64,000 nucleotides of DNA from a virus (lineage: Duplodnaviria; Caudoviricetes), in IMG/VR virus record IMGVR_UViG_2775506876_000001, positions 12,549 to 76,548 of that record. One strand, written 5' to 3'. Each line of letters starts with the position of its first letter. The stretch's first letter is position 1. The notes under the pieces were generated by a model. That model saw only the letters and a list, made by a program, of their open reading frames with translations. It ran no database searches and was not told the DNA's origin. Position numbers and translations under genes: made by a program. Positions 4,878-64,000 of this stretch are shown here, piece by piece.

Positions 4878-6323
4878 ATGGTTTTAACTTTAAAAAATGA
4901 TTCCAGATATCTTTTATCAATGTTCAGTAGCCTATATGCTGAAAAACTTAACAGCAATACTACTGTTGATGTAAATATCTCTAGTCCTAGTTTATCCAGG
5001 CAAGAGCTTAATAATTTATCTAGGACAAACGGGATAATTAAACGTGCTATTTACGAATATCCTAAATCAGCATCAAATTCTTGGATAGATTTAAATTTCA
5101 GCAAAGAAACTAATCTAAAAAACCAGGATGTTTTAGATTATTTAATGCGTATTCCATACTATACAAATCTCCAAAAAGCTGTTCATGGTTATGGTGCTAG
5201 AAATGCTTTTAAGTATGCCTCTGGACTAGCGCGTAAACTTGGCAGCGCTTTTATAGTTCTTGGGATAGCTGATGGCAACGATTTATCAGAACCTGTTAAT
5301 TTAAACAATATTCAGTCAATAGACTGGATGTTTGTTTATGATTGCTATGACTTAACTAGAACAGTCATTAATGATCAAGAATTTTTTCAATTATCAAATG
5401 ATGCTAATCAGTTAATACATCCTAATAGAGTTCTAAACTTTTATGGTAATAAGTTAGACACTGAAATCGAGTATGTAAACTCAAATTACAGACATGATTC
5501 AGTAATTAATTTGATGTTTGAAGCTTTCAGCAACTGGGTTACAGGTTCTAAAGCAATCTATGAAATGCTTTTGACTGGTAATATGTACACTTTTGGCATC
5601 GAAGATTTATCAGAGGATGTTAAACGTGATATTGACCAGGGTACAACCGAATATCAAGATTACATGCGATCGCGTGCTGAATCTGTAAAAACTGGGATGT
5701 CTGCAACTAACTTGTTGATTTATGACAAGATGCATGAATTAGTTGAAAATATATCTAGAAATTTTTCAGGAACCAAAGAAAGCTTTGAAGCGTTGCAAGA
5801 TACTCTGGCTTCTGTTGTTGATATGCCACGCTGGAAACTTTACAACGAATTTGGTACGGCAGGGTTAGCAGCGTCTGTTGAATCAGCGAGAATTTTACAA
5901 TTTAATTGGGCTATTTCAGTACAAGATTGGCAGATAGAAAACTGGCTAGAACCTGTTTACAAGTTATGTCAGTTTTGCATGTCTGCTAAAAATTTATATG
6001 GTTCAATTGTTGATAACTTTGGTGAAAACTCAATAATATTTCCAATTCAATTGAAGCTTACAAAGCTTGAAGAAATTGAATTGGAAAACTTGGCTATGGA
6101 TAGAAACCAAAAGTTACTTTTAATGGGTGCTATCAGTCCTGATGAAGTCCGAAAACAGTATGAAAACTCAGTTTTTAATCCTAATATTACCCTGGATAAC
6201 AATCTATACAAAGCATATCAGAACAAAAAAGAACAAGAACAGAAAATGATTTTAAACCAAAACAATTTAAATAATAAAGATAATTCAGGAAATAACAAAA
6301 ATGATAAAAACTCTAGTAAATAA
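4878..6323 (+). CDS. Portal protein (DUF1073-like)
   Basis: 481 aa; 'IHPNRVL', 'DMPRWKLY', 'GAISPDEVR' motifs; upstream of DUF2213-like gene. Confidence 0.85.
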   Translation: MVLTLKNDSRYLLSMFSSLYAEKLNSNTTVDVNISSPSLSRQELNNLSRTNGIIKRAIYEYPKSASNSWIDLNFSKETNLKNQDVLDYLMRIPYYTNLQKAVHGYGARNAFKYASGLARKLGSAFIVLGIADGNDLSEPVNLNNIQSIDWMFVYDCYDLTRTVINDQEFFQLSNDANQLIHPNRVLNFYGNKLDTEIEYVNSNYRHDSVINLMFEAFSNWVTGSKAIYEMLLTGNMYTFGIEDLSEDVKRDIDQGTTEYQDYMRSRAESVKTGMSATNLLIYDKMHELVENISRNFSGTKESFEALQDTLASVVDMPRWKLYNEFGTAGLAASVESARILQFNWAISVQDWQIENWLEPVYKLCQFCMSAKNLYGSIVDNFGENSIIFPIQLKLTKLEEIELENLAMDRNQKLLLMGAISPDEVRKQYENSVFNPNITLDNNLYKAYQNKKEQEQKMILNQNNLNNKDNSGNNKNDKNSSK

Positions 6324-16829: not shown

Positions 16830-17163
16830 CGTTATCTACCATTTTTTCAGAATAATAATCTTGATCGTCAATGCTATCAATATTATCATTCAAAAAATTA
16901 TGGACTTTATCTGACTTAAAGTAGATTTTTATAATTTCAAAAAGTTTTTTTTGTCTACGTTCTATCCTAATTATTCTTTGATTTAAAATTGTCCATTTTT
17001 TAGGAACATCCCAATACTTAATAAGCACAAGTAACATTAATGCTGCACCAACCATTAAAGCAGCTAGCTCTTGCTCAACGAGTCTTTGTACAGTTTTTAA
17101 AACTAAATACTCTATACTAAGTTGTGATTCAGCATCAGCAAAAACAAATAAATTTAATAACAT
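16819..17163 (-). CDS. Membrane protein, possible holin
   Basis: TM 'LAALMVGAALMLLVLI' followed by basic/coiled segment. Confidence 0.45.
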   Translation of the reverse strand: MLLNLFVFADAESQLSIEYLVLKTVQRLVEQELAALMVGAALMLLVLIKYWDVPKKWTILNQRIIRIERRQKKLFEIIKIYFKSDKVHNFLNDNIDSIDDQDYYSEKMVDNDDN

Positions 17164-17311
17164 AAACTTATACGTCAGTAAATCTATTATATTTAATAGT
17201 TATCTAAGACACAATAGGTATTTACACTATTATGTAATTTTGTCAATTATCTTTAAATAATCTTTACAATATAAAGTTTGCTAGAATTTTAGAAATAATT
17301 TAGCAACAGTT

Positions 17312-17500
17312 ATGACTAGAAACAAAATTGTAATTTTTTCAGGAATACTGGTTTTATTAATAGTTGTCAACGCAATAACCTACATTAACCAAAGTTGCTC
17401 AAAAATAATTAAAGAAGCTGTAGACCAGGGTGATATACAAGTTTTACAGGATATCAACTCTGGTAGAAAATATTGCAGACCCGCAGGAAAATTATTTTAA
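17312..17500 (+). CDS. Small membrane-anchored protein
   Basis: N-terminal TM helix. Confidence 0.5.
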   Translation: MTRNKIVIFSGILVLLIVVNAITYINQSCSKIIKEAVDQGDIQVLQDINSGRKYCRPAGKLF

Positions 17501-17515
17501 TTTGTCAGACATTAT

Positions 17516-17584
17516 AAAAAGTGACTTTTTAATTTTAAAAATATAGAATTTATTGTCTATAGCATAAAAGTTTAAATTTGTCAA
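17516..17584 (-). promoter_or_regulatory. Repeated promoter cassette, copy 2 (leftward)
   Basis: Reverse complement TTGACA(17584)-17bp-TATAGA plus 15-bp palindrome. Confidence 0.7.
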
Positions 17585-17650
17585 GGGTATTTATAATAAT
17601 TTTCAGATTTTGTAGCCAGATTGAAAACTACAAAAAATATTTGGTTGTTG

Positions 17651-17970
17651 GTTTCAATCCCTGATAGGGATTATTAGGTATCGCTAGATTCATTACTGAG
17701 GAAGATTACAAGGGCATAGGTTTCAATCCCTGATAGGGATTATTAGGTATTGCTAGAATTACGTAATGAGGCTGTTGAGTTTTTACGTAAGTTTCAATCC
17801 CTGATAGGGATTATTAGGTATTGCTAGTTTAGGCTTTTTAGTGCTGATATCCCTATTAACGTTTCAATCCCTGATAGGGATTATTAGGTATTGCTAGATT
17901 TTTAGCTGGGATATCTTACGCTCCAATTGGTTAGTTTCAATCCCTGATAGGGATTATTAGGTATTGCTAG
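17651..17970 (-). CRISPR. Orphan CRISPR mini-array: 5 repeats of 37 bp, 4 spacers (32, 34, 33, 36 bp)
   Basis: Repeat GTTTCAATCCCTGATAGGGATTATTAGGTATTGCTAG at 17651, 17720, 17791, 17861, 17934; reverse strand ends ATTGAAAC; the single mismatched repeat is at 17651 (trailer); no cas genes in window. Confidence 0.97.
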
Positions 17971-18120
17971 GGCTACCTTTTGAAAGTCTTTGTCTATAAG
18001 GTTTTCACGGTTCGGTTGCGTCAATCTACTTAAAAATATCATTACAGCCATTAAACTGTCAAGGTTTTGGTCAAATAGCTATAGATCAACACTGAACCAA
18101 TCAATTCAAAATCAAAGCTT
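17971..18120 (-). promoter_or_regulatory. CRISPR leader
   Basis: Reverse strand reads TTGACGCAACCGAACC..GAAAACC..CTTTCAAAAGGTAGCC into the first repeat, resembling cyanobacterial leaders. Confidence 0.65.
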
Positions 18121-18122
18121 TT

Positions 18123-19236
18123 CTAGGGCATTCTAGACCAGGGTAAAAGCATGTATGAATCTAGGGTACTTAGATAATCTAGAACCTTTTAACTATCTAT
18201 TGTCATTAAAACATCTTATTGCAAATAACTGTACTAGAGTATTTATGCTTATTAAGTACTACTGTAATAGTACAGATATTCTCAATAAGCTCAATATTCT
18301 CAATAAGACCACAAAATTTTTTGTAGTTTTTTGTAATGGTTTTTGTAGAAATTACAAACTACAAAAACCTTATGTAGCAAGGATTTTGTAATAGTTTTTG
18401 TAGATTTTGTAGTTTTGAGCCGGATATAAATCTCTACAGGTGTACTAGTACAGGTGTACTATCAAAGTGTACTAGTAAAATTTATACAAACTAGTACTAT
18501 CAAAGGCTTATAGAAATCTATGATTTAATCTGGCTAGAGAAAAATAATCATAAATTTTTGTAGTCCAGGGTAGTTGTACTAACAAAAACCTGAGTAAATC
18601 ATAAAAAATCTAAATAAGTATTTTTACTTATAAATTTGTACTAGTTATATAAAGGATAAATTAATATAAGTTTTTCTTATACTTCTTTATGTTTTATATA
18701 TGTAATACAAATTAAATAGATTATTTGTACTAGTTTAAGTATTTATAACTATTTAGGTTTTTGTTAGTACAACTACCCTGGGCTACATAATTTTTTGATT
18801 ATTTTTCTCTGACCATAGAAAACTAGATATTCATATAAGTCTTGATATATAAGATTTTCTTGTACTACAAAACTACCTGTTTTTATATTACAGACATACT
18901 ACAAAGCTCTAGAGATTTATATCCGGCTCAAAACTACAAAATCTACAAAAACTATTACAAAATCCTTGCTACATAAGGTTTTTGTAGTTTGTAATTTCTA
19001 CAAAAACTATTACAAAAAACTACAAAATTTTTTGTAGTCTTATTGAGAATATTGAGCTTATTGAGAATATCTGTACTATTACAGTAGTACAAGTAAGTAT
19101 AAATGCTTAAAATAGTATATGTATAAGCTAAACTTATCAATGAAAACTACAAAAAGTCTGAAAGCCTTGTAACAACTAGAATCTTTATTCAGCTTGATAA
19201 ACTAATCGTGCTGCCACCCTGGTCTAGAATGCCCTA
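18123..19236. repeat. Nested palindromic element A (about 1.1 kb); inverted copy of element B
   Basis: Arms 18124-18144/19216-19236 (21 bp), 18256-18436/18910-19090 (181 bp), 18536-18591/18755-18810 (56 bp); dense ACTACAAAA and GTACTA iterations. Confidence 0.93.
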
Positions 19237-19384
19237 TAACTTACCCGATCATCGAACAAACCCTTTTGTACTTCCAATGAATCAAGGCTTTTTGTAATCG
19301 ATTCTGGAAACTACAAAAATTTTTGTAGTCCATTTTGCAACTCTGCGATAAACTACAAAATTCAAAAATTGTTTTAAAATACCC

Positions 19385-19454
19385 TTGACAAATTTAAACT
19401 TTTGTGCTATAGAGAATAATTTATAAAATATTCAAAATTAAAAAGTCACTTTTT
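19385..19454 (+). promoter_or_regulatory. Repeated promoter cassette, copy 3, upstream of nucleotide-metabolism genes
   Basis: TTGACA-17bp-TATAGA plus AAAAAGTCACTTTTT. Confidence 0.75.
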
Positions 19455-19522
19455 AAAATAGTTTTATAATATAAGTGTTGAATTTTGGAATTGTCTGCCA
19501 TCTTTTACAGATGGCTTTACTT

Positions 19523-19804
19523 ATGGATAATCAAGAAAAACCAGATATTCTTTTGATACTTTCACAAGAACATCCAGAATTAAAAGAATATTTTTTACAG
19601 CGTAGAAATATAGGGCTACAAACATACGGTAAACGTTTAAACCCTTTTAATGGTAGAGATGCTTACAAAGATTTGTTTGAAGAATTACTAGATGCCTGTG
19701 CTTATGCATATCAGCTTTATTTAGAAAATCCTAATGATACTAAATATCATGTGATTTATGAAGCTGTTACTGAATTAACAAAATTAGTTTTAGAGAAAAA
19801 GTAA
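19523..19804 (+). CDS. Phage protein, possibly all-alpha nucleotide pyrophosphatase-like
   Basis: 'GLQTYG..L...NGRD..DLFEELLDACAY'; next to dcd; ATG at 19523 preferred. Confidence 0.5.
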   Translation: MDNQEKPDILLILSQEHPELKEYFLQRRNIGLQTYGKRLNPFNGRDAYKDLFEELLDACAYAYQLYLENPNDTKYHVIYEAVTELTKLVLEKK

Positions 19805-20393: not shown

Positions 20394-21378
20394 TAACTTT
20401 GGTATAGGTTTTTTTAATCCTAGAATGATAAAAAGTTCTAGGATTTTTTATATAATAGATATGTTCTTAGCTACTTGATTTTATGAATAACATTGTTGAA
20501 TTATTAGGCTTTTATGGTGGTGATAAAAGAGTTTGTTTATCAGCTTGGCAAAGTACTACAGAAGAATTAGGAATTGATTTACCCGATGATATTTCTGATA
20601 GGGTTGATGTGATTTTTGAATATCTATGTACCCAGAAAAAGAAAACACCTTTTGAATTATTAAATTTTTTAGCTGAAAATCATCACGAAACACCTTTTGA
20701 AAAAGCTATTTTAGATTTTCAATTAACAGGTGATATTGCATCACACATACATGTAATCAAACATAGAATAAGTAGTGTAAATGCAGAAAGTCAAAGATAT
20801 AAAGAGTTTATTTATGATCGTTTTTATATTCCTGATGATTGGCAAGGAATTCAAGCTACTGGTGATGTAACTTGGTTTACTAATTTTGAAGAAGAATGTG
20901 TTTTTAGCAATAAAAACGAATATTGGCAAGACATTTTAGAAAATTATAGTCAATTAGGGTTTAATTTATATCATCAAGCTATTGAAGATTTAACACCAGT
21001 TTTAGGTAAAAAAACGTGCTAAAGAATCAGCTAGATATTTTCTCGGTTATAATACTCAAATAAACTTTGACTGGCAGATGAATTTTAGAAGCTTTGTAAA
21101 TATTCAACAATTAAGAAATAGTGATCATTCTCAAAAAGAAATTCATTACATTGCCAACACCATGCTTTATTTAGTTGAGAATATCCCTGGACAACCGTTT
21201 AAATATTGTTTAAAAGCTTTTGGATTAAAGTCTGATCCTAATTGGTTGTTAAATCATCAAAAATTACTTGAAGATTTAAAATTGCTAAATAATCTATAAC
21301 TTTGGTATAGGTTTTTTAATCCTAGAATTATAAAAAGTTCTAGGATTTTTTATATAATAGATATGTTCTTAGTTACTT
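20393..21378 (+). repeat. ~84-bp direct repeat preceding each thyX gene (20393-20476 and 21296-21378)
   Basis: ATAACTTTGGTATAGGTTTTTTAATCCTAGAA...TTCTAGGATTTTTTATATAATAGATATGTTCTTAG; contains a hairpin and TATAAT. Confidence 0.9.
20483..21299 (+). pseudogene. thyX: FAD-dependent thymidylate synthase ThyX, frameshifted at an A7 run (21008-21014)
   Basis: 'HETPFE' and 'KHRISSVNAESQRY'; removing one A gives GKKRAKESARYFLGYNTQ...MNFRSF, joining ORFs 20483 and 21078. Confidence 0.85.
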
Positions 21379-21387
21379 AATGGTTTT

Positions 21388-22197
21388 ATGTTTCAACCTA
21401 AAGTCAAAATTATTAAAGATTCGGTTAACGCTGCAACTGGTTCTAGAATTACAACTTTTGTTTTAACTTATCATCGTTTTATACATTCTGAGTTCATGAC
21501 TTATAGAATGTTTTCTAGAAATGCTTCAAGTTCTAGAGCAATTCCTGTAGAGAAAATGATTCAAAAAGTTATTGATCAACAGGTTGAGCCACTTTATTGG
21601 GGTAAGAATCAACCAGGGATGCAAGCGAGTCAAGAATTATCATCAGAAGAAATAGAGCAAGCCAGATTACAATGGAATGCCGCAAAAGCAACAGTAATTT
21701 CTTATGCTCGACAAATGATTGAAAAAGGTGTACATAAACAAATAGTCAATAGAATTTTAGAACCTTTTTCAACCATTACAGTAATTTGCACATCCACAGA
21801 TTATCAAAACTTTTTTAATCAACGTTGTCATCCAGATGCACAACCAGAAATACAAGCTTTAGCATATTTAATGAAAGCTGAGTATGATAAATCAAAACCT
21901 GATATCTTATACCCTGGTGAATGGCATTTACCATTTTATGATTTAGAGAATGATAAAGGTATTTTTGGTGATGATATTTTAAAAGTGTGTGTTGGTAGAT
22001 GTGCAAGAGTTAGTTATTTAAATCATGATGGTAAGCGTAATTTAAGCAAAGATATTGAATTACATGATAAATTACTTGTTGCTAACCCAAAACATCTTAG
22101 TCCTTTTGAACATGTAGCGATCGCTCAAACTGGTAATAATGCTAATTTTTTGGATTTTAAAAGTTATAGATATATTTTAGAAAATTCTGGTTTATAA
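21388..22197 (+). CDS. thyX: Second ThyX-like thymidylate synthase (different subfamily)
   Basis: 'TYRMFSRNASSSRAIP', 'HKQIVNRILEPF', 'AQPEIQ', 'RCARVSY', 'HLSPFEH'. Confidence 0.88.
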   Translation: MFQPKVKIIKDSVNAATGSRITTFVLTYHRFIHSEFMTYRMFSRNASSSRAIPVEKMIQKVIDQQVEPLYWGKNQPGMQASQELSSEEIEQARLQWNAAKATVISYARQMIEKGVHKQIVNRILEPFSTITVICTSTDYQNFFNQRCHPDAQPEIQALAYLMKAEYDKSKPDILYPGEWHLPFYDLENDKGIFGDDILKVCVGRCARVSYLNHDGKRNLSKDIELHDKLLVANPKHLSPFEHVAIAQTGNNANFLDFKSYRYILENSGL

Positions 22198-32316: not shown

Positions 32317-32820
32317 TTAAATTTTTACCATTTTTCCAACAAAACCTAAGTCTTGAAAATTATCTTTAAACCTGGTAATAACACTAGATTTATTTGATAA
32401 ACACATAAACGCGTTGTAATTACGGGGACTTTTACCAGGTTCCATAGTTTTCCCATCTATCCAGGGTATTCTATTTCTTACAATTACAGTAGGATATGTC
32501 AGCAATTCAGGAACTTGAAATAACACAGACTCGCTAAAAGCGGCAAAAATAATTGAAACGTGTTTATGTTCTTGAATAGTAGCGATCGCTTTGATAGCCC
32601 AAAGTTTAGCAGGTGTCGGTGGATTGGTATACACAAAATTATGTTTCCAAGATATTTCTAAACCGTTAACACCTTTGATAGGGCAAGGATCGAAAATGTC
32701 TTTAGTGTCAAAAGTTGAGTAAACTTTATTCCAGATATACCCTGGTGTGTAGTACTCTTGTGATGGTTTGTGATTTCCAAGTAATGAATGATTATTCATA
32801 ATTTTAAGCTGCTTTAGCAA
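32317..32820 (-). CDS. Phage N6-adenine DNA methyltransferase-like protein
   Basis: 'EYYTP', 'FDPCP', 'NGLEISW...VYTNPPT' (NPPY variant). Confidence 0.65.
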   Translation of the reverse strand: MLKQLKIMNNHSLLGNHKPSQEYYTPGYIWNKVYSTFDTKDIFDPCPIKGVNGLEISWKHNFVYTNPPTPAKLWAIKAIATIQEHKHVSIIFAAFSESVLFQVPELLTYPTVIVRNRIPWIDGKTMEPGKSPRNYNAFMCLSNKSSVITRFKDNFQDLGFVGKMVKI

Positions 32821-50004: not shown

Positions 50005-50368
50005 ATATTTATTACTTCAGACCTGAATCTATTATACTATGTTTGTAAAAATCATATAATACTGATGTAAAAGCTTTACTTATACCACAATCTCTATAAT
50101 ATCATTAAAATTTATAATGCTTCTGAACAGTATTATCTGTGTTATAGTTAAATCAACATAAAATATTACTTCAAACCTAATTTTCAGCCAGCCCTAAAAG
50201 TTGGCTGATTTTTTTATCTAAAATTTGTCGGACAAATCAAAAAGTGACTTTTTGATTTTTAAATTTAAAGTTTGTAAATACCTATATGAAAATTGTGTAA
50301 ATACCTATAGACGTTAGTAACAGCACTAAGTATTATATATAGTTACACAAATCTCACAGGTTAGATAT

Positions 50369-50602
50369 ATGGCTGTCAAGTCTTTAGTCAGACCAACCAA
50401 TCACCAGCTATCACAATCACAAATAGAGTTTTACCAAAATCTGAGACTCCAGAAAGCTTACAAAGAAGCCGAAATGTATAAGAGAAACTGCTTGAGAATA
50501 AAATCAGAACATTGTATATTTTGCAACTCTCAGAAGTTAGTTTTAACACCTCTATCAAAGGAAAGGACTTTTAAATGTTCAAGTTGCAACAGAAGTTTCT
50601 AG
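50369..50602 (+). CDS. Small zinc-ribbon protein
   Basis: 'CIFCNS...FKCSSCNRSF'. Confidence 0.65.
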   Translation: MAVKSLVRPTNHQLSQSQIEFYQNLRLQKAYKEAEMYKRNCLRIKSEHCIFCNSQKLVLTPLSKERTFKCSSCNRSF

Positions 50603-50805
50603 TATATTTTGTATATTTTGAATAAAATCAGATATATTACATCATTAATCATCAGCTTGGGCATCTATAAGTATCAACACTAATAACCCTGTCAGAATTC
50701 TGGCAGGTTTTTTAGTAAATTTTGTTCTATAACACATTCTTGTAAAATTGTCAATTAAATATTGAATAACAGTGTGTTTGACCAGGGTAAACGCTGATTA
50801 TAGTA

Positions 50806-51849
50806 TTTTTGTAGTTTTCATTGATTTTCATTGATAAGTTTAGCTTATACACATGTTATTTTAAGCATTTATACTTACTTGTACTACTGTAATAGTACAG
50901 ATATTCTCAATAAGCTCAATATTCTCAATAAGACTACAAAAAATTTTGTAGTTTTTTGTAATAGTTTTTGTAGAAATTACAAACTACAAAAACCTTATGT
51001 AGCAAGGATTTTGTAATAGTTTTTGTAGATTTTGTAGTTTTGAGCCGGATATAAATCTCTAGAGCTTTGTAGTATGTCTGTAATATAAAAACAGGTAGTT
51101 TTGTAGTACAAGAAAATCTTATATATCAAGGCTTATATGAATATCTAGTTTTCTATGGTCAGAGAAAAATAATCAAAAAATTATGTAGCCCAGGGTAGTT
51201 GTACTAACAAAAACCTAAATAGTTATAAATACTTAAACTAGTACAAATAATCTATTTAATTTGTATTACATATATAAAACATAAAGAAGTATAAGAAAAA
51301 CTTATATTAATTTATCCTTTATATAACTAGTACAAATTTATAAGTAAAAATACTTATTTAGATTTTTTATGATTTACTCAGGTTTTTGTTAGTACAACTA
51401 CCCTGGACTACAAAAATTTATGATTATTTTTCTCTAGCCAGATTAAATCATAGATTTCTATAAGCCTTTGATAGTACTAGTTTGTATAAATTTTACTAGT
51501 ACACTTTGATAGTACACCTGTACTAGTACACCTGTAGAGATTTATATCCGGCTCAAAACTACAAAATCTACAAAAACTATTACAAAATCCTTGCTGTGTA
51601 AGGTTTTTGTAGTTTGTAATTTCTACAAAAACCATTACAAAAAACTACAAAATTTTTTGTAGTCTTATTGAGAATATCGAGCTTATTGAGAATATCTGTA
51701 CTATTACAGTAGTACTTAATAAGTAAAAATACTCTAGTACAGTTATTGTCATTAACATGTTTTATTGACAATAGATAGTTAAAAGGTTTTAGATTATCTA
51801 AGTACCCTAGAATCCATATATGCTTTTACCCTGGTCTAGAATGCCCTAG
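50806..51849. repeat. Nested palindromic element B; inverted copy of 18123-19155
   Basis: Reverse complement aligns with element A with only scattered substitutions; 181-bp arms at 50881-51061/51535-51715. Confidence 0.93.
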
Positions 51850-51998
51850 GACTTACCAAAGTTATTTGAACGGCTTCTGATAGCTTTTATATAGATATAA
51901 GGTTTTTGTGTCCAGATTGAAAAACTACAAAAATTTTTTGTAACTCTGCGATAAATTACAAAATCCAAAAATTGTTAAAGAATTATTATAAAATACTC

Positions 51999-52083
51999 TT
52001 GACAAATTTAAACTTTTGTGCTATAGCAAATAAATTCTATATTTTTAAAATTGAAAAGTGACTTTTTGAATTGCCGGACAAAA
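51999..52083 (+). promoter_or_regulatory. Repeated promoter cassette, copy 4
   Basis: TTGACA-17bp-TATAGC; nearly identical to 412-495. Confidence 0.75.
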
Positions 52084-52116
52084 CACTATAATATTAGTAG
52101 TGTTTTCAAAATTATT

Positions 52117-57633: not shown

Positions 57634-59682
57634 ATGACTATATCCCTGGATAAACCAAAACAATTTAGCGCTAGAAAGGTTGTAGAAATTATCGGTAATC
57701 GTATTCATATAGATGAGTCTAGATTAGATTTGTTTCATTATCCTGAATACGATTTACCAGAATGGAAACCAACGATAAATTTAAAACCTTACGCAGAATT
57801 AAGTCAATTTTATGTTGATATTGAAACCTCTGGATTGAACCCTGATGTTGATAAGGTTGAATTAATTGGACTTTATAACGAAAAAAATGTAGCGGTTATT
57901 ATCAATTGTTTGGCTAAACCTATTAACAAACAATTGTTGATAGATAAATTGAATCAAGCTGACACAGAAAATGTTAAATATTCTGGTAATAATTTAGTTG
58001 TCATTAATTCAGGTTCAGAAAAACTAGGGCTACAAAAATTTGTTGAAATATTAACTAAAAAGAATCCCGATTTATTTGTAACTTTTAATGGTTTTAAATT
58101 TGATTTACCGTTCATTATTAAACGTTGTCTAGTTAATAATGTTAAACATTATTTTTATGTAAATGACAAGCGTGAAACTTGTCATAAAACGGCTCAAAAA
58201 TGGGGTAAACCACAAACTTATAATGGTATCTGGTTAACTACATATCCTAAAGACAAATGTGCCATTATAGACCTCTATAATCAGGTTCTAGCATGGGATT
58301 TTGTAGCTAGGAAGTTAACTAGTCATAGCCTAAAACAATCAGTGTTACAGACTGGCTTAAGGTCAGAAGCTAGACTCGAACTGAGTTATGAAGAAATGAG
58401 GGTTGTTGTTAATCAGGGAAAAATAGAGGAGTTTGCGCAATACCTTGTTTATGATTTAGAAGATACTAAATTATTAGGTGATTTTTTAATTCCGGCAATT
58501 TACTATCAGAAATTATTTTTACCTGATTGGAAATTGCAAAGCATAAGCCATTCTGGTAACGGTTCAAAACACAATGATATTCTGAAAAAACATTACTCTA
58601 TTAAAGGTCAAAGTTTACCAGGGACAGACCAAAAATTACTTTTTGAAGGTGGTTTAACTGGTGCTAATGCTGGATATTACAAGTATGTTTCAAAGATTGA
58701 CGTAGCATCACTTTATCCCAGTATCATGCTAACTTATTGTATTTGTAGTATTAAAGATGTTGATAAGTTTCAGCTTATATTATTGAAATATTTATTAAAC
58801 TTTAGGCTTGAATTAAAGGCTAAAAAGAAAGCTAAAACAGCCACTAATGAAGAAATACAAACCGAAGGATCATTCAAAATAATGATCAATTCTATGTATG
58901 GTTCTCTTGGTACAACAGGAATTGAATTTAATGATTATGTAGCAGCAGCTTTAGTCACAGCTTATGGCAGAGCTATTCTAAAACTGATGGTTAAATTAAT
59001 ACAAGAAAATGGTGGAACCGTTGCGAGCATTGATACTGACGGTGTTTATTATAGTACTAATGATTCTACGTATGAATTGAATAAACAGATTCATAAAATT
59101 GTACAGTCACAGATGCCCAAGGGTATCAATTTAGATTATGAACTAGAGGCACAAGCATTTTTTGTACCACCAAATGATATTTACAACGGTATTAAAAGTT
59201 CTGTTGTTACAGGAACCGATGAAGATGAAGACGGTATCCGAAACGATGGACTAAAGAAAAACTATATCATCGTTGATTTAAAAGGAAAGCTTAAATCTAA
59301 AGGTAAATATGTTAAGCGCGATCGCTGCAAACTAGAGAAAGAGTTTCAGCCTACCCTGGTGCTTAAGCTATTAGAAAGTGTTGAGGCTGCAACAAACTAT
59401 TATCAAGACATAATTAATCAGATGAAACTTGGTATTTATCCGGTTGAAAACTTAAAAATTACCCGAACTATTAGAAAGGGTGAAATCAAAATGTTATCTC
59501 TAGGTTCTGAAGGTGAACAAGTCAGTTACTATTTTGCAGAACCGCAAATAGTTATCGGTAAACGTGGTAAACCTTTAAAAAACAAACAAGAGATCCGTAT
59601 TACTGAAGGTGTACCAGGTTGGAACTTTTACCAAGACTTGGTAACTAAGATGTTCGATGAAGTTATGCAATTTGTAAAGTAA
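57634..59682 (+). CDS. polB: Family B DNA polymerase with 3'-5' exonuclease
   Basis: 'DIETSG', 'FNGFKFDLPF', 'YDLED', 'DVASLYPSIM', 'KIMINSMYG', 'DTDG'. Confidence 0.95.
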   Translation: MTISLDKPKQFSARKVVEIIGNRIHIDESRLDLFHYPEYDLPEWKPTINLKPYAELSQFYVDIETSGLNPDVDKVELIGLYNEKNVAVIINCLAKPINKQLLIDKLNQADTENVKYSGNNLVVINSGSEKLGLQKFVEILTKKNPDLFVTFNGFKFDLPFIIKRCLVNNVKHYFYVNDKRETCHKTAQKWGKPQTYNGIWLTTYPKDKCAIIDLYNQVLAWDFVARKLTSHSLKQSVLQTGLRSEARLELSYEEMRVVVNQGKIEEFAQYLVYDLEDTKLLGDFLIPAIYYQKLFLPDWKLQSISHSGNGSKHNDILKKHYSIKGQSLPGTDQKLLFEGGLTGANAGYYKYVSKIDVASLYPSIMLTYCICSIKDVDKFQLILLKYLLNFRLELKAKKKAKTATNEEIQTEGSFKIMINSMYGSLGTTGIEFNDYVAAALVTAYGRAILKLMVKLIQENGGTVASIDTDGVYYSTNDSTYELNKQIHKIVQSQMPKGINLDYELEAQAFFVPPNDIYNGIKSSVVTGTDEDEDGIRNDGLKKNYIIVDLKGKLKSKGKYVKRDRCKLEKEFQPTLVLKLLESVEAATNYYQDIINQMKLGIYPVENLKITRTIRKGEIKMLSLGSEGEQVSYYFAEPQIVIGKRGKPLKNKQEIRITEGVPGWNFYQDLVTKMFDEVMQFVK

Positions 59683-62806: not shown

Positions 62807-64000
62807 CTATAATTCAGGAACCTTAAGATCCTTGTTAAACCCTGCATAGTGCTTGTAAATTATCTCTGGGCTATTGCCTACCCAGTTTGCAACGTCTTTG
62901 GCATCTATACCAGAGTCTAGACATAGCGTGATAAATGTGTGTCGAGTCTGGTATGGATTCTTGTAACTTGATAGCTTACCCTGGTCAATCAAGTCTTTAA
63001 TTATCCCGTTTTTCCATACATTGTATTGCCAGTACTTGAAATCTATCAGTTGCTTGTTGTACTTGTTAGTAAAAATAAATTGTTCAGGCTTATGGCTAGA
63101 CAATTTAAAATCTAGAATGATCTGGTGTAACTGGTCATTAATTGGAAATTTTCTTTTACGCTGAGTCTTTAAACTGTTCTGAATATGCTTTTGACTTTGA
63201 ACTAAAATCTGTTCAAAAATTATAAATTTTTCATTCAGATTTATATGTTTCCATTGCAAGGCTAGTGCTTCACTCGGTCTAGCACCAGTAAAAAATAAAA
63301 ACTGGACAAGGAACGAATAGCAACCATATTTTTTACTGTGTTCAAAAGCATCAATAATTAAGTCTCGCTCAGTTCTCGTAAACGGATTTATGTCTAGTTC
63401 TTGCTTTTTGGGTTTTGGTAACGCTTTAATCACATCAATGAACGGATTGCTTTCTATAATTTTTTCATTGACTGCCCAGCTACAACAGCGTGAAATTTCT
63501 GATAAATATTTACGGACAGAGTAAAGCGTTTTAGTTTCAAGTAAAATATTTTTGATTTTTAGAGCGTCTGTGACCAGGGTGAACTGTTGTGATTGTATCC
63601 AATTGTTAACCTGTTCTAGCCTAGATTTAATTGTATTCAGGCTGTAAACGTTTCTCTTTACATCAATATATCTAGGGAACAGAATTTTCAAGTCACTAGA
63701 GTTAATGACACGAGTCTCGTTAACTATCCAATCATCCCAGTTAAATTTACCAGCTTCTAGCTGACCATTAACTATCTTGATTTTTTGCAAAACATACTTT
63801 AACCCGTTTTCAGTTAAAGTACCGTGTTTACCCATGCTTATGAATTGCTGGTAAGGTTTTGCAGAGTCTTTTTTCAACCAGGGTTTAACGGGTAGTGTGC
63901 CACGTAACCATAATTTATTATTCTTAATGACAATTGATACATAACTTTTGGTTATCTTTAATTTCTCGTTTTCTTGTGCAACCCTGGACTGAATATCCAT
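62807..64000 (-). CDS. int: Tyrosine recombinase / integrase, cyanobacterial type
   Basis: 'TGARPSEALAL', 'PYQTRHTF', 'GNS...HY'; N-terminal 'LWLRGTLPVKP...PYQQFI'. Confidence 0.93.
   Translation of the reverse strand: MDIQSRVAQENEKLKITKSYVSIVIKNNKLWLRGTLPVKPWLKKDSAKPYQQFISMGKHGTLTENGLKYVLQKIKIVNGQLEAGKFNWDDWIVNETRVINSSDLKILFPRYIDVKRNVYSLNTIKSRLEQVNNWIQSQQFTLVTDALKIKNILLETKTLYSVRKYLSEISRCCSWAVNEKIIESNPFIDVIKALPKPKKQELDINPFTRTERDLIIDAFEHSKKYGCYSFLVQFLFFTGARPSEALALQWKHINLNEKFIIFEQILVQSQKHIQNSLKTQRKRKFPINDQLHQIILDFKLSSHKPEQFIFTNKYNKQLIDFKYWQYNVWKNGIIKDLIDQGKLSSYKNPYQTRHTFITLCLDSGIDAKDVANWVGNSPEIIYKHYAGFNKDLKVPEL

Follow-up and report, generated by a model that had tools for sequence, protein, structure and literature searches.

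Does a phage without cas genes of its own carry a genuine CRISPR array here, and if so, what would it use the array for? The question is raised by a short run of repeats in the 64,000-nt stretch of viral DNA that we analysed, which we refer to as the window. A sequence-only reading had described five repeats and four unique spacers on the minus strand; the numbers, the coordinates and the repeat string were all correct. The 37-nt repeat occurs five times (Table 1) with start-to-start steps of 69, 71, 70 and 73 nt, and Tandem Repeats Finder returned a period of 70. Four of the five repeats are identical, the fifth differs by a single change, and the four spacers are all different and mutually unrelated. 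A 22-nt core of the repeat was found five times in the window compared to no occurrence in 100 shuffles. The Rfam family CRISPR-DR5 (RF01318) matched four of the five repeats at 41.6 bits (gathering score 40), all on the minus strand as had been proposed; the variant terminal repeat was absent from the Rfam matches listed. The minus-strand repeat is predicted to form a hairpin with an 8-bp stem (-8 kcal/mol, z -2.46), and its 3' 8-nt end is ATTGAAAC. In CRISPR arrays the terminal repeat is usually the variant one, and here the variant lies at the end away from the proposed leader. Two DNA sequencing runs from one sample, which was possibly the source of the assembly, reproduced the array without differences. 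We have next to no doubt that the locus is a real CRISPR array with a leader, phage-borne and cas-less. Two further features of the spacers were observed, for neither of which the chance level was assessed: S2 has the 8-nt palindrome TTACGTAA at both its ends, and S3 and S4 have in common GATATC, four bases and CTAAAAA.

Table 1. Window coordinates of the array, the palindromic elements around it and the integrase gene at the prophage end.
Feature	Position	Strand	Evidence
Outer left arm of palindrome copy 1 (pairs with 19314-19459)	17511..17643	.	Alignment
Terminal, leader-distal repeat, one T-to-C change	17651..17687	-	Repeat comparison
Spacer S1, 32 nt, oldest by position	17688..17719	-	
Repeat 2, 37 nt	17720..17756	-	Rfam
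Spacer S2, 34 nt	17757..17790	-	
Repeat 3	17791..17827	-	Rfam
Spacer S3, 33 nt	17828..17860	-	
Repeat 4	17861..17897	-	Rfam
Spacer S4, 36 nt, leader-proximal	17898..17933	-	
Leader-proximal repeat, 8-bp hairpin followed by 3' end ATTGAAAC	17934..17970	-	Rfam and folding
Leader, homologous to the leaders of host DR5 arrays, N-1 and YongM	17971..18123	-	Alignment
Promoter-like site: TTGACA (18062-18057), 18-nt spacer, TG-extended TATTTT ending at 18033 (10/12)	18033..18062	-	Aligned with TTGACA of host leaders
Inner palindrome copy 1, centre ~18673, includes the 184-nt arms	18124..19239	.	Alignment
Slot opposite the cassette in copy 1 (right arm), empty, 74 nt	19240..19313	.	Alignment
Outer right arm of palindrome copy 1	19314..19459	.	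Alignment
Second copy of the palindromic element	50224..52095	.	Slot 51850-51980 (131 nt) without CRISPR cassette
Tyrosine integrase, prophage end	62807..64000	-	PF00589, E 1.5e-12; att core just beyond the window

To whom the array belongs was decided by its surroundings. The window corresponds to C1:626,187-690,186 (minus strand) of a two-contig host genome of 9.96 Mb, a large cyanobacterial genome of the filamentous type. Its GC content is 31.4% compared to 41.4% for the contig, and the low-GC tract extends from ~626 to 704 kb. PHROG matches were obtained for a large terminase (2.1e-35), a portal (4.7e-37), a head-maturation protease (1.3e-33), a major head protein (4.8e-20), a J-like tail fibre (1.2e-23) and a primase/helicase (2.1e-19); two of the ten prophage proteins scanned had no match. 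Directly upstream of the array are the genes of two ~1,100-residue proteins with pectate-lyase-like domains, and directly downstream are those of dCTP deaminase and ThyX, which places the array between tailspike and nucleotide-metabolism genes. The element interrupts a host gene for an AAA_23/SMC_N ATPase, of which the N-terminal 116 residues are encoded on one side and the other 632 residues on the other. A 28-nt att core was found at C1:626,020-626,047 and at 703,859-703,886, in frame with both parts of the ATPase gene. The virion genes, the integrase, the split host gene and the 28-nt att repeats together indicate an integrated temperate phage of ~77.8 kb. The array-bearing element is thus an integrated temperate prophage in the host chromosome, and the window is most of that prophage. 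The earlier description of the array as phage-borne stands in that it lies inside a prophage with terminase, portal, protease, capsid, tail, integrase and att sites; the notion of a free phage genome does not. An ordinary orphan host array in a chromosomal island would fit with the many DR5 arrays that are scattered through the host genome and have leaders of the same kind. However, this array is 45.9 kb and 31.3 kb away from the ends of an att-bounded, low-GC prophage and amid phage genes, and we find such an origin scarcely credible.

Several other features of the prophage were recorded. A 19-nt motif, TTTAGATACGTTTTTAGAT, recurs just inside both of its ends. Beyond the left end of the window, at C1:693,120-702,734 (L010:2934-12548), is the gene of a protein of 3,204 residues in which tape-measure, M23 peptidase and VanY domains are joined. 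The thyX region (20483-22197) is interrupted: its two ORFs, 20483-21022 and 21388-22197, are separated by an ORF of 73 residues, and no Rfam intron family reached threshold in the window. When relatives were sought with the terminase, one IMG/VR contig at 26% identity was found and none among the genome contigs, and neither collection held a phage relative that would show conservation of the cassette. Among the matches listed, the best for the terminase were Mu-like Burkholderia phages and a Microcystis phage (41-46% over about half of the protein), and those for the capsid did not exceed 28% identity.

Within the prophage, the array occupies one side of a symmetrical element. The non-coding region 17511-19459 is an imperfect palindrome centred at ~18673, with arms of 184 nt at 97% complementarity and of 94 nt at 81%. 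In a global alignment of the two halves, 17511-17643 pairs with 19459-19314 and 18121-18672 pairs with 19239-18674. Between these paired blocks the left arm contains 477 nt (17644-18120) compared to 74 nt (19313-19240) in the right arm. The asymmetry of 403 nt coincides with the array and its leader, in keeping with the ~380 bp that had been estimated and likened to the length of the array. A second copy of the palindromic element lies elsewhere in the prophage; over 1,025 nt, its segment 50825-51849 and the reverse complement of 18123-19146 have 97.9% identity. The cassette slot measures 521 nt in copy 1 compared to 131 nt in copy 2, and homology among all palindrome arms resumes exactly at 18124. 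The counterpart sites in the opposite arm and in copy 2 are empty, which bears out the placement of the array in one palindrome arm. Leader and array make up a discrete cassette of ~470 nt that is present in a single arm of this 2-kb palindrome. The terminal repeat starts with TTTCAATC, and in the alignment of the outer boundary this string falls on a TTTCAATC in the empty site; the cassette may have been captured via this microhomology between repeat start and palindrome, although the match could be chance. A single junction of 17589 with 18193 (30 nt on one side) in the contigs of the two DNA runs was not taken as excision, as it fits the cassette-free paralogous arm of palindrome copy 2.

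The other arm of palindrome copy 2 (50264-50790) carries different cargo, namely a 77-residue ORF (50369-50602) with a CxxC...CxxC pattern, followed by a hairpin and a T-run at 50679-50716. No NCBIfam match was found for the ORF. The two 1,025-nt copies are inverted and lie 31.7 kb apart, each being the core of a 2-kb palindrome, and these cores are rich in ACTACAAAA/TTTTGTAGT motifs. The prophage segment between the inverted copies may be invertible. An invertible segment of ~30 kb is described for the A-1/N-1 cluster in a 2026 preprint.

To characterise the leader, we took the 120 nt that precede the first repeat, aligned them with seven leaders of host DR5 arrays and derived z scores from shuffles. 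Six of the seven host leaders had 78-85 identical positions over ~110 aligned (z 9-16), and the weakest had 73 of 100 (z 4.8). The leaders of the arrays in phages N-1 and YongM also aligned with it, at z 6 and z 10, respectively. Blocks common to the leaders are CTTGACA, a -10-like element, GATTGACGCAAC, ACCTTGAAAACC and CTTTCAA. The best promoter-like site in the 2.7-kb region 17000-19700 of the window, which is of the sigma-70 type, lies in this leader, on the minus strand. The leader is thus on the right side of the array, where it had been placed from the letters alone, and it is both homologous to host leaders and furnished with a promoter-like site. In a search of the family, 155 of 201 genomes had matches, and among the matches listed outside the prophage's own genome all were confined to the array and ~95 nt of its leader. 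Over the final ~12 nt before the first repeat, five of the seven aligned host leaders read CTCCG[GA]GC, a consensus from which this array and both other phage arrays, N-1 and YongM, deviate. In type I systems the leader-repeat junction usually matters for spacer integration, and its divergence makes continued acquisition uncertain. As judged from these bases, the acquisition of new spacers by the mini-array is doubtful.

If the phage array functions, from where would its Cas proteins come? No Cas family was found in the 26 prophage ORFs scanned against PHROGs or Pfam. Genome-wide, the matches to Cas1, Cas6 (PF10040) and RAMP were all outside the prophage (C1:626-704 kb), in agreement with the array having been called cas-less. 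The host has a complete type I-D locus at C1:837-850 kb, ~165 kb from the phage array, with Cas3', Cas10d/Csc3, Csc2/Cas7, Csc1/Cas5, Cas6, Cas4, Cas1d and Cas2. The genome contains one Cas1 match (C1:837,611-838,468). The Cas6 of the I-D locus is encoded at C1:839,609-840,448. A second host Cas6 (C1:1,743,497-1,744,639) lies beside a III-D locus with Cas10, three Csx7, Csx10 and a ring-nuclease-like protein. The I-D locus adjoins a 15-repeat array whose repeat, in crRNA sense, has 31 of its 37 nt in common with that of the phage. The six differences are confined to the first 12 nt, and the 3' 25 nt, which comprise the whole hairpin and the 8-nt handle ATTGAAAC, are identical. This similarity, together with that to the N-1 repeat, upholds the earlier classification of the repeat as I-D-like, and a matching host Cas system, the complete I-D set, is present in the same genome. 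The differences in the first 12 nt of the repeat and the divergence of the leader-repeat junction suggest that loading, and above all acquisition, is possibly impaired.

A separate observation concerns the host arrays themselves. A group II intron of the host is present in three genome copies (C1:833,708-835,839; 6,181,114-6,183,246; 7,621,410-7,623,542), and all three are in DR5 CRISPR arrays, each exactly one base past a repeat (...GGGATTGAAAC A / GTGCG..., crRNA sense). The reverse transcriptase of the intron matched TIGR04416 at 5e-82, below the model cut-off. From these insertion points, the end of the CRISPR repeat looks like the homing site of the intron; a keyword literature search found no report of group II intron homing to the CRISPR repeat end.

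The explanation that we favour, with moderate confidence and by analogy with N-1, is that the cas-less, virus-borne mini-array is used with the host Cas6 and I-D Cascade against competing mobile elements. The cassette would probably have been captured from a cyanobacterial array. The array would be transcribed on the minus strand from the predicted leader promoter, and the host I-D Cas6, possibly with a contribution of the III-D Cas6, would cleave the transcript at the hairpin base of every repeat. Once the host I-D Cascade had been loaded with the four crRNAs, entering DNA that combines a matching protospacer with a GTN-type PAM, most likely that of a competing phage or other mobile element, would be destroyed, and the prophage and its lysogen would be shielded from superinfection.

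What the spacers target bears directly on this explanation. By eye, no self-match of any spacer had been seen, and none of the four had a second match in either contig of the 9.96-Mb host genome, the best non-self match being 16 nt exact. The spacer search that had been suggested, covering IMG/VR and cyanobacterial genomes, likewise matched no target. There were no exact matches in IMG/VR for a 25-26-nt piece of each of the four spacers; S4 and S3 had none in 388 other genomes of the family, and S2 and S1 none in 14 other genomes of the genus, at up to three mismatches. Such exact or near-exact searches are insensitive to diverged targets. When spacers and array were compared with INPHARED (50,697 phage records), 22 records matched, N-1 and YongM by the repeat and the remainder weakly (E ~4) and mostly from phages of unrelated hosts. 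On plasmids no spacer target was found, the seven matching records being all repeat matches. An earlier suggestion was that the spacers steer host Cas proteins to genes on the host chromosome or plasmids. We regard this as highly improbable, since no supporting evidence emerged from either contig and the complementarity of the spacers to the I-D and III-D loci was not above that of shuffled spacers.

In the opposite direction, a host spacer matches the prophage. The spacer at C1:964,751-964,787, in a 19-repeat DR5 array (C1:963,703), matches window 32607-32643 at 32 of 37 nt, with the first 10 nt perfect and a 5' flank of GTT. The PAM of type I-D systems is of the GTN type. The match suggests that the phage lineage has been under CRISPR pressure and that the host lineage has met a relative of the phage; the five mismatches may explain why the prophage is tolerated. 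Short host-spacer matches at window 6098-6121, which overlap with repeat sequence, were discounted as chance. Under such pressure the array could serve another purpose. Its repeat transcript might act as a decoy that titrates Cas6 or Cascade subunits, or as a crRNA-like regulator (Racr-like or crlRNA-like) that silences host immunity, and in either form protect the prophage from the host I-D system. The host spacer with its GTT flank would be in line with this, and precedents are described for repeat-mimicking RNA anti-CRISPRs (PMC10651486) and for phage crRNA-like regulators (bioRxiv 10.1101/2024.10.29.618823). However, what is present is an array with four full-length unique spacers, not repeat units that are solitary or truncated. 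Beyond the array, the window contained no other copy of the repeat core, and so no solitary repeat, at up to three mismatches, and the spacers match the I-D and III-D loci no better than shuffled ones. We therefore give a counter-defence RNA only a small share of the probability.

The cassette might also be a neutral passenger. On this account, a piece of a cyanobacterial array was gained by illegitimate recombination and kept in a tolerant non-coding region, where it has no function for the phage. This would fit with the absence of a spacer target from every collection searched, with the diverged leader-repeat junction and with the acceptance of other cargo by the slot in palindrome copy 2. 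It would also fit with the isolation of the repeat variant. The exact phage repeat occurs at no other place in the host genome, and it was found neither in IMG/VR nor in the contigs of 185,579 species genomes; a single metagenome match of 22 nt, without repeat structure, was rejected as chance. On the other hand, four of the five repeats are identical, and the hairpin, the handle and the promoter boxes are intact. Cassettes of leader and array occur, moreover, in at least three phages, namely the isolates N-1 and YongM and this prophage, which is structurally unrelated to N-1. Their repeated retention argues for selection, with the count of three taken irrespective of any kinship between N-1 and YongM. 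A functionless array is therefore unlikely in our judgement, though it carries appreciable weight.

The use of the array with host Cas proteins could also be part of something larger. Leader and array might together be a mobile module that passes between Nostocales chromosomes and unrelated phages such as N-1, YongM and this prophage, sits in a slot of a duplicated palindrome and still acquires spacers. Movement would proceed by recombination at the repeat microhomology, and the landing site would be the cargo slot of the 2-kb palindrome that borders a ~32-kb, possibly invertible segment. Spacers would be taken up in the lysogen by the only Cas1-Cas2-Cas4 module of the host. We consider this reading rather improbable; if it were true, the prophage would be a transmissible and updatable immune memory.

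Phage-borne arrays without cas genes are already known, and their targets and use are still largely inferential. The present genome offers a test system, as it contains an array, a homologous leader, a matching I-D locus with the only Cas1, a III-D Cas6 and two empty sites. The lysogen, if it is in culture, would let one ask whether a temperate cyanophage extends the CRISPR immunity of its host. That a phage structurally unrelated to N-1 captured the same kind of leader-array module can be put forward as an argument that the module is selected for rather than accidental. A keyword search of the open-access literature found no report of a prophage-borne array in heterocystous cyanobacteria, and we do not claim a first.

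The spacers of archaeal-virus mini-arrays reportedly match related viruses, whereas a target was found for none of the prophage spacers. Those arrays, which differ also in belonging to viruses of archaea, are described as short and cas-less with host-type repeats, and use of the host Cas proteins was proposed for them (Medvedeva et al. 2019, PMC6858448). The arrays of Clostridium difficile prophages likewise lie inside a prophage but belong to another phylum and CRISPR subtype; they are described as resembling the host arrays, being located at or near the structural module and having spacers that match other phages (cited in PMC4916379). RNA anti-CRISPRs, as described in PMC10651486, also are phage mimics of host CRISPR repeats, but they are solitary repeat units, in contrast to the regular array with four canonical spacers and a leader found here. 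Nostoc phage YongM (MT426122) has a DR5-type repeat and a homologous leader in common with the prophage. It differs in having two repeats and one spacer only, and in a hairpin loop of TATTA compared to TATCA here.

The Nostoc cyanophage N-1, which had been named as a precedent for a cas-less array, proved to be one in detail. Its array is described as having five DR5 repeats, four spacers, a leader of ~120 bp and no cas genes, and as being transcribed during infection (Chenard 2016, PMC4916379). According to a preprint, the N-1 repeat is a substrate of the Anabaena I-D Cas6, Alr1566, and a poorer one of the III-D Cas6, Alr1482, and it is six positions off the closest host repeat (bioRxiv 10.1101/2020.04.14.041012). 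Both arrays thus have five 37-nt DR5-type repeats, four spacers and a leader of ~120-150 nt, and both are cas-less. The 3' 25 nt of the repeat are identical, the leaders are homologous, and each repeat has, on the published description of N-1, six differences from the closest host repeat. For the four N-1 spacers, too, no targets are reported (PMC4916379; bioRxiv 10.1101/2020.04.14.041012), which is a further likeness to the prophage array. Both phages encode a related DNA polymerase B, and in both the array lies just outside one of a pair of inverted repeats, which are ~0.7-1 kb long and separated by ~30 kb; those of N-1 are at least 720 nt long and ~29 kb apart.

The two phages are otherwise very different. 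N-1 is reported to be a lytic myovirus, whereas the prophage is integrated and temperate and has an integrase. The first 12 nt of the two repeats differ at six positions, and the prophage array abuts its inverted repeat whereas the N-1 array lies ~2.6 kb off. For the prophage, a single genome shows both the I-D locus of the lysogen and the insertion sites without a cassette. When the first 50 kb of N-1 were compared with the prophage by tblastx, the only matches were the cassette, DNA polymerase B and one 53-residue match outside the window, with no structural genes in common. DNA polymerase B (window 57634-59682; E 1.8e-141, ~35-70% identical in segments) was the only sizeable protein-coding similarity; the primases are unrelated, as are the sequences of the inverted repeats. 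With so little in common beyond the cassette, and with the best listed terminase and capsid matches in phages of other groups, the cassette here represents a separate capture of this kind of module by a structurally unrelated temperate phage. By its sequence, the prophage array is a further case of the N-1 kind, in a temperate phage of different structure.
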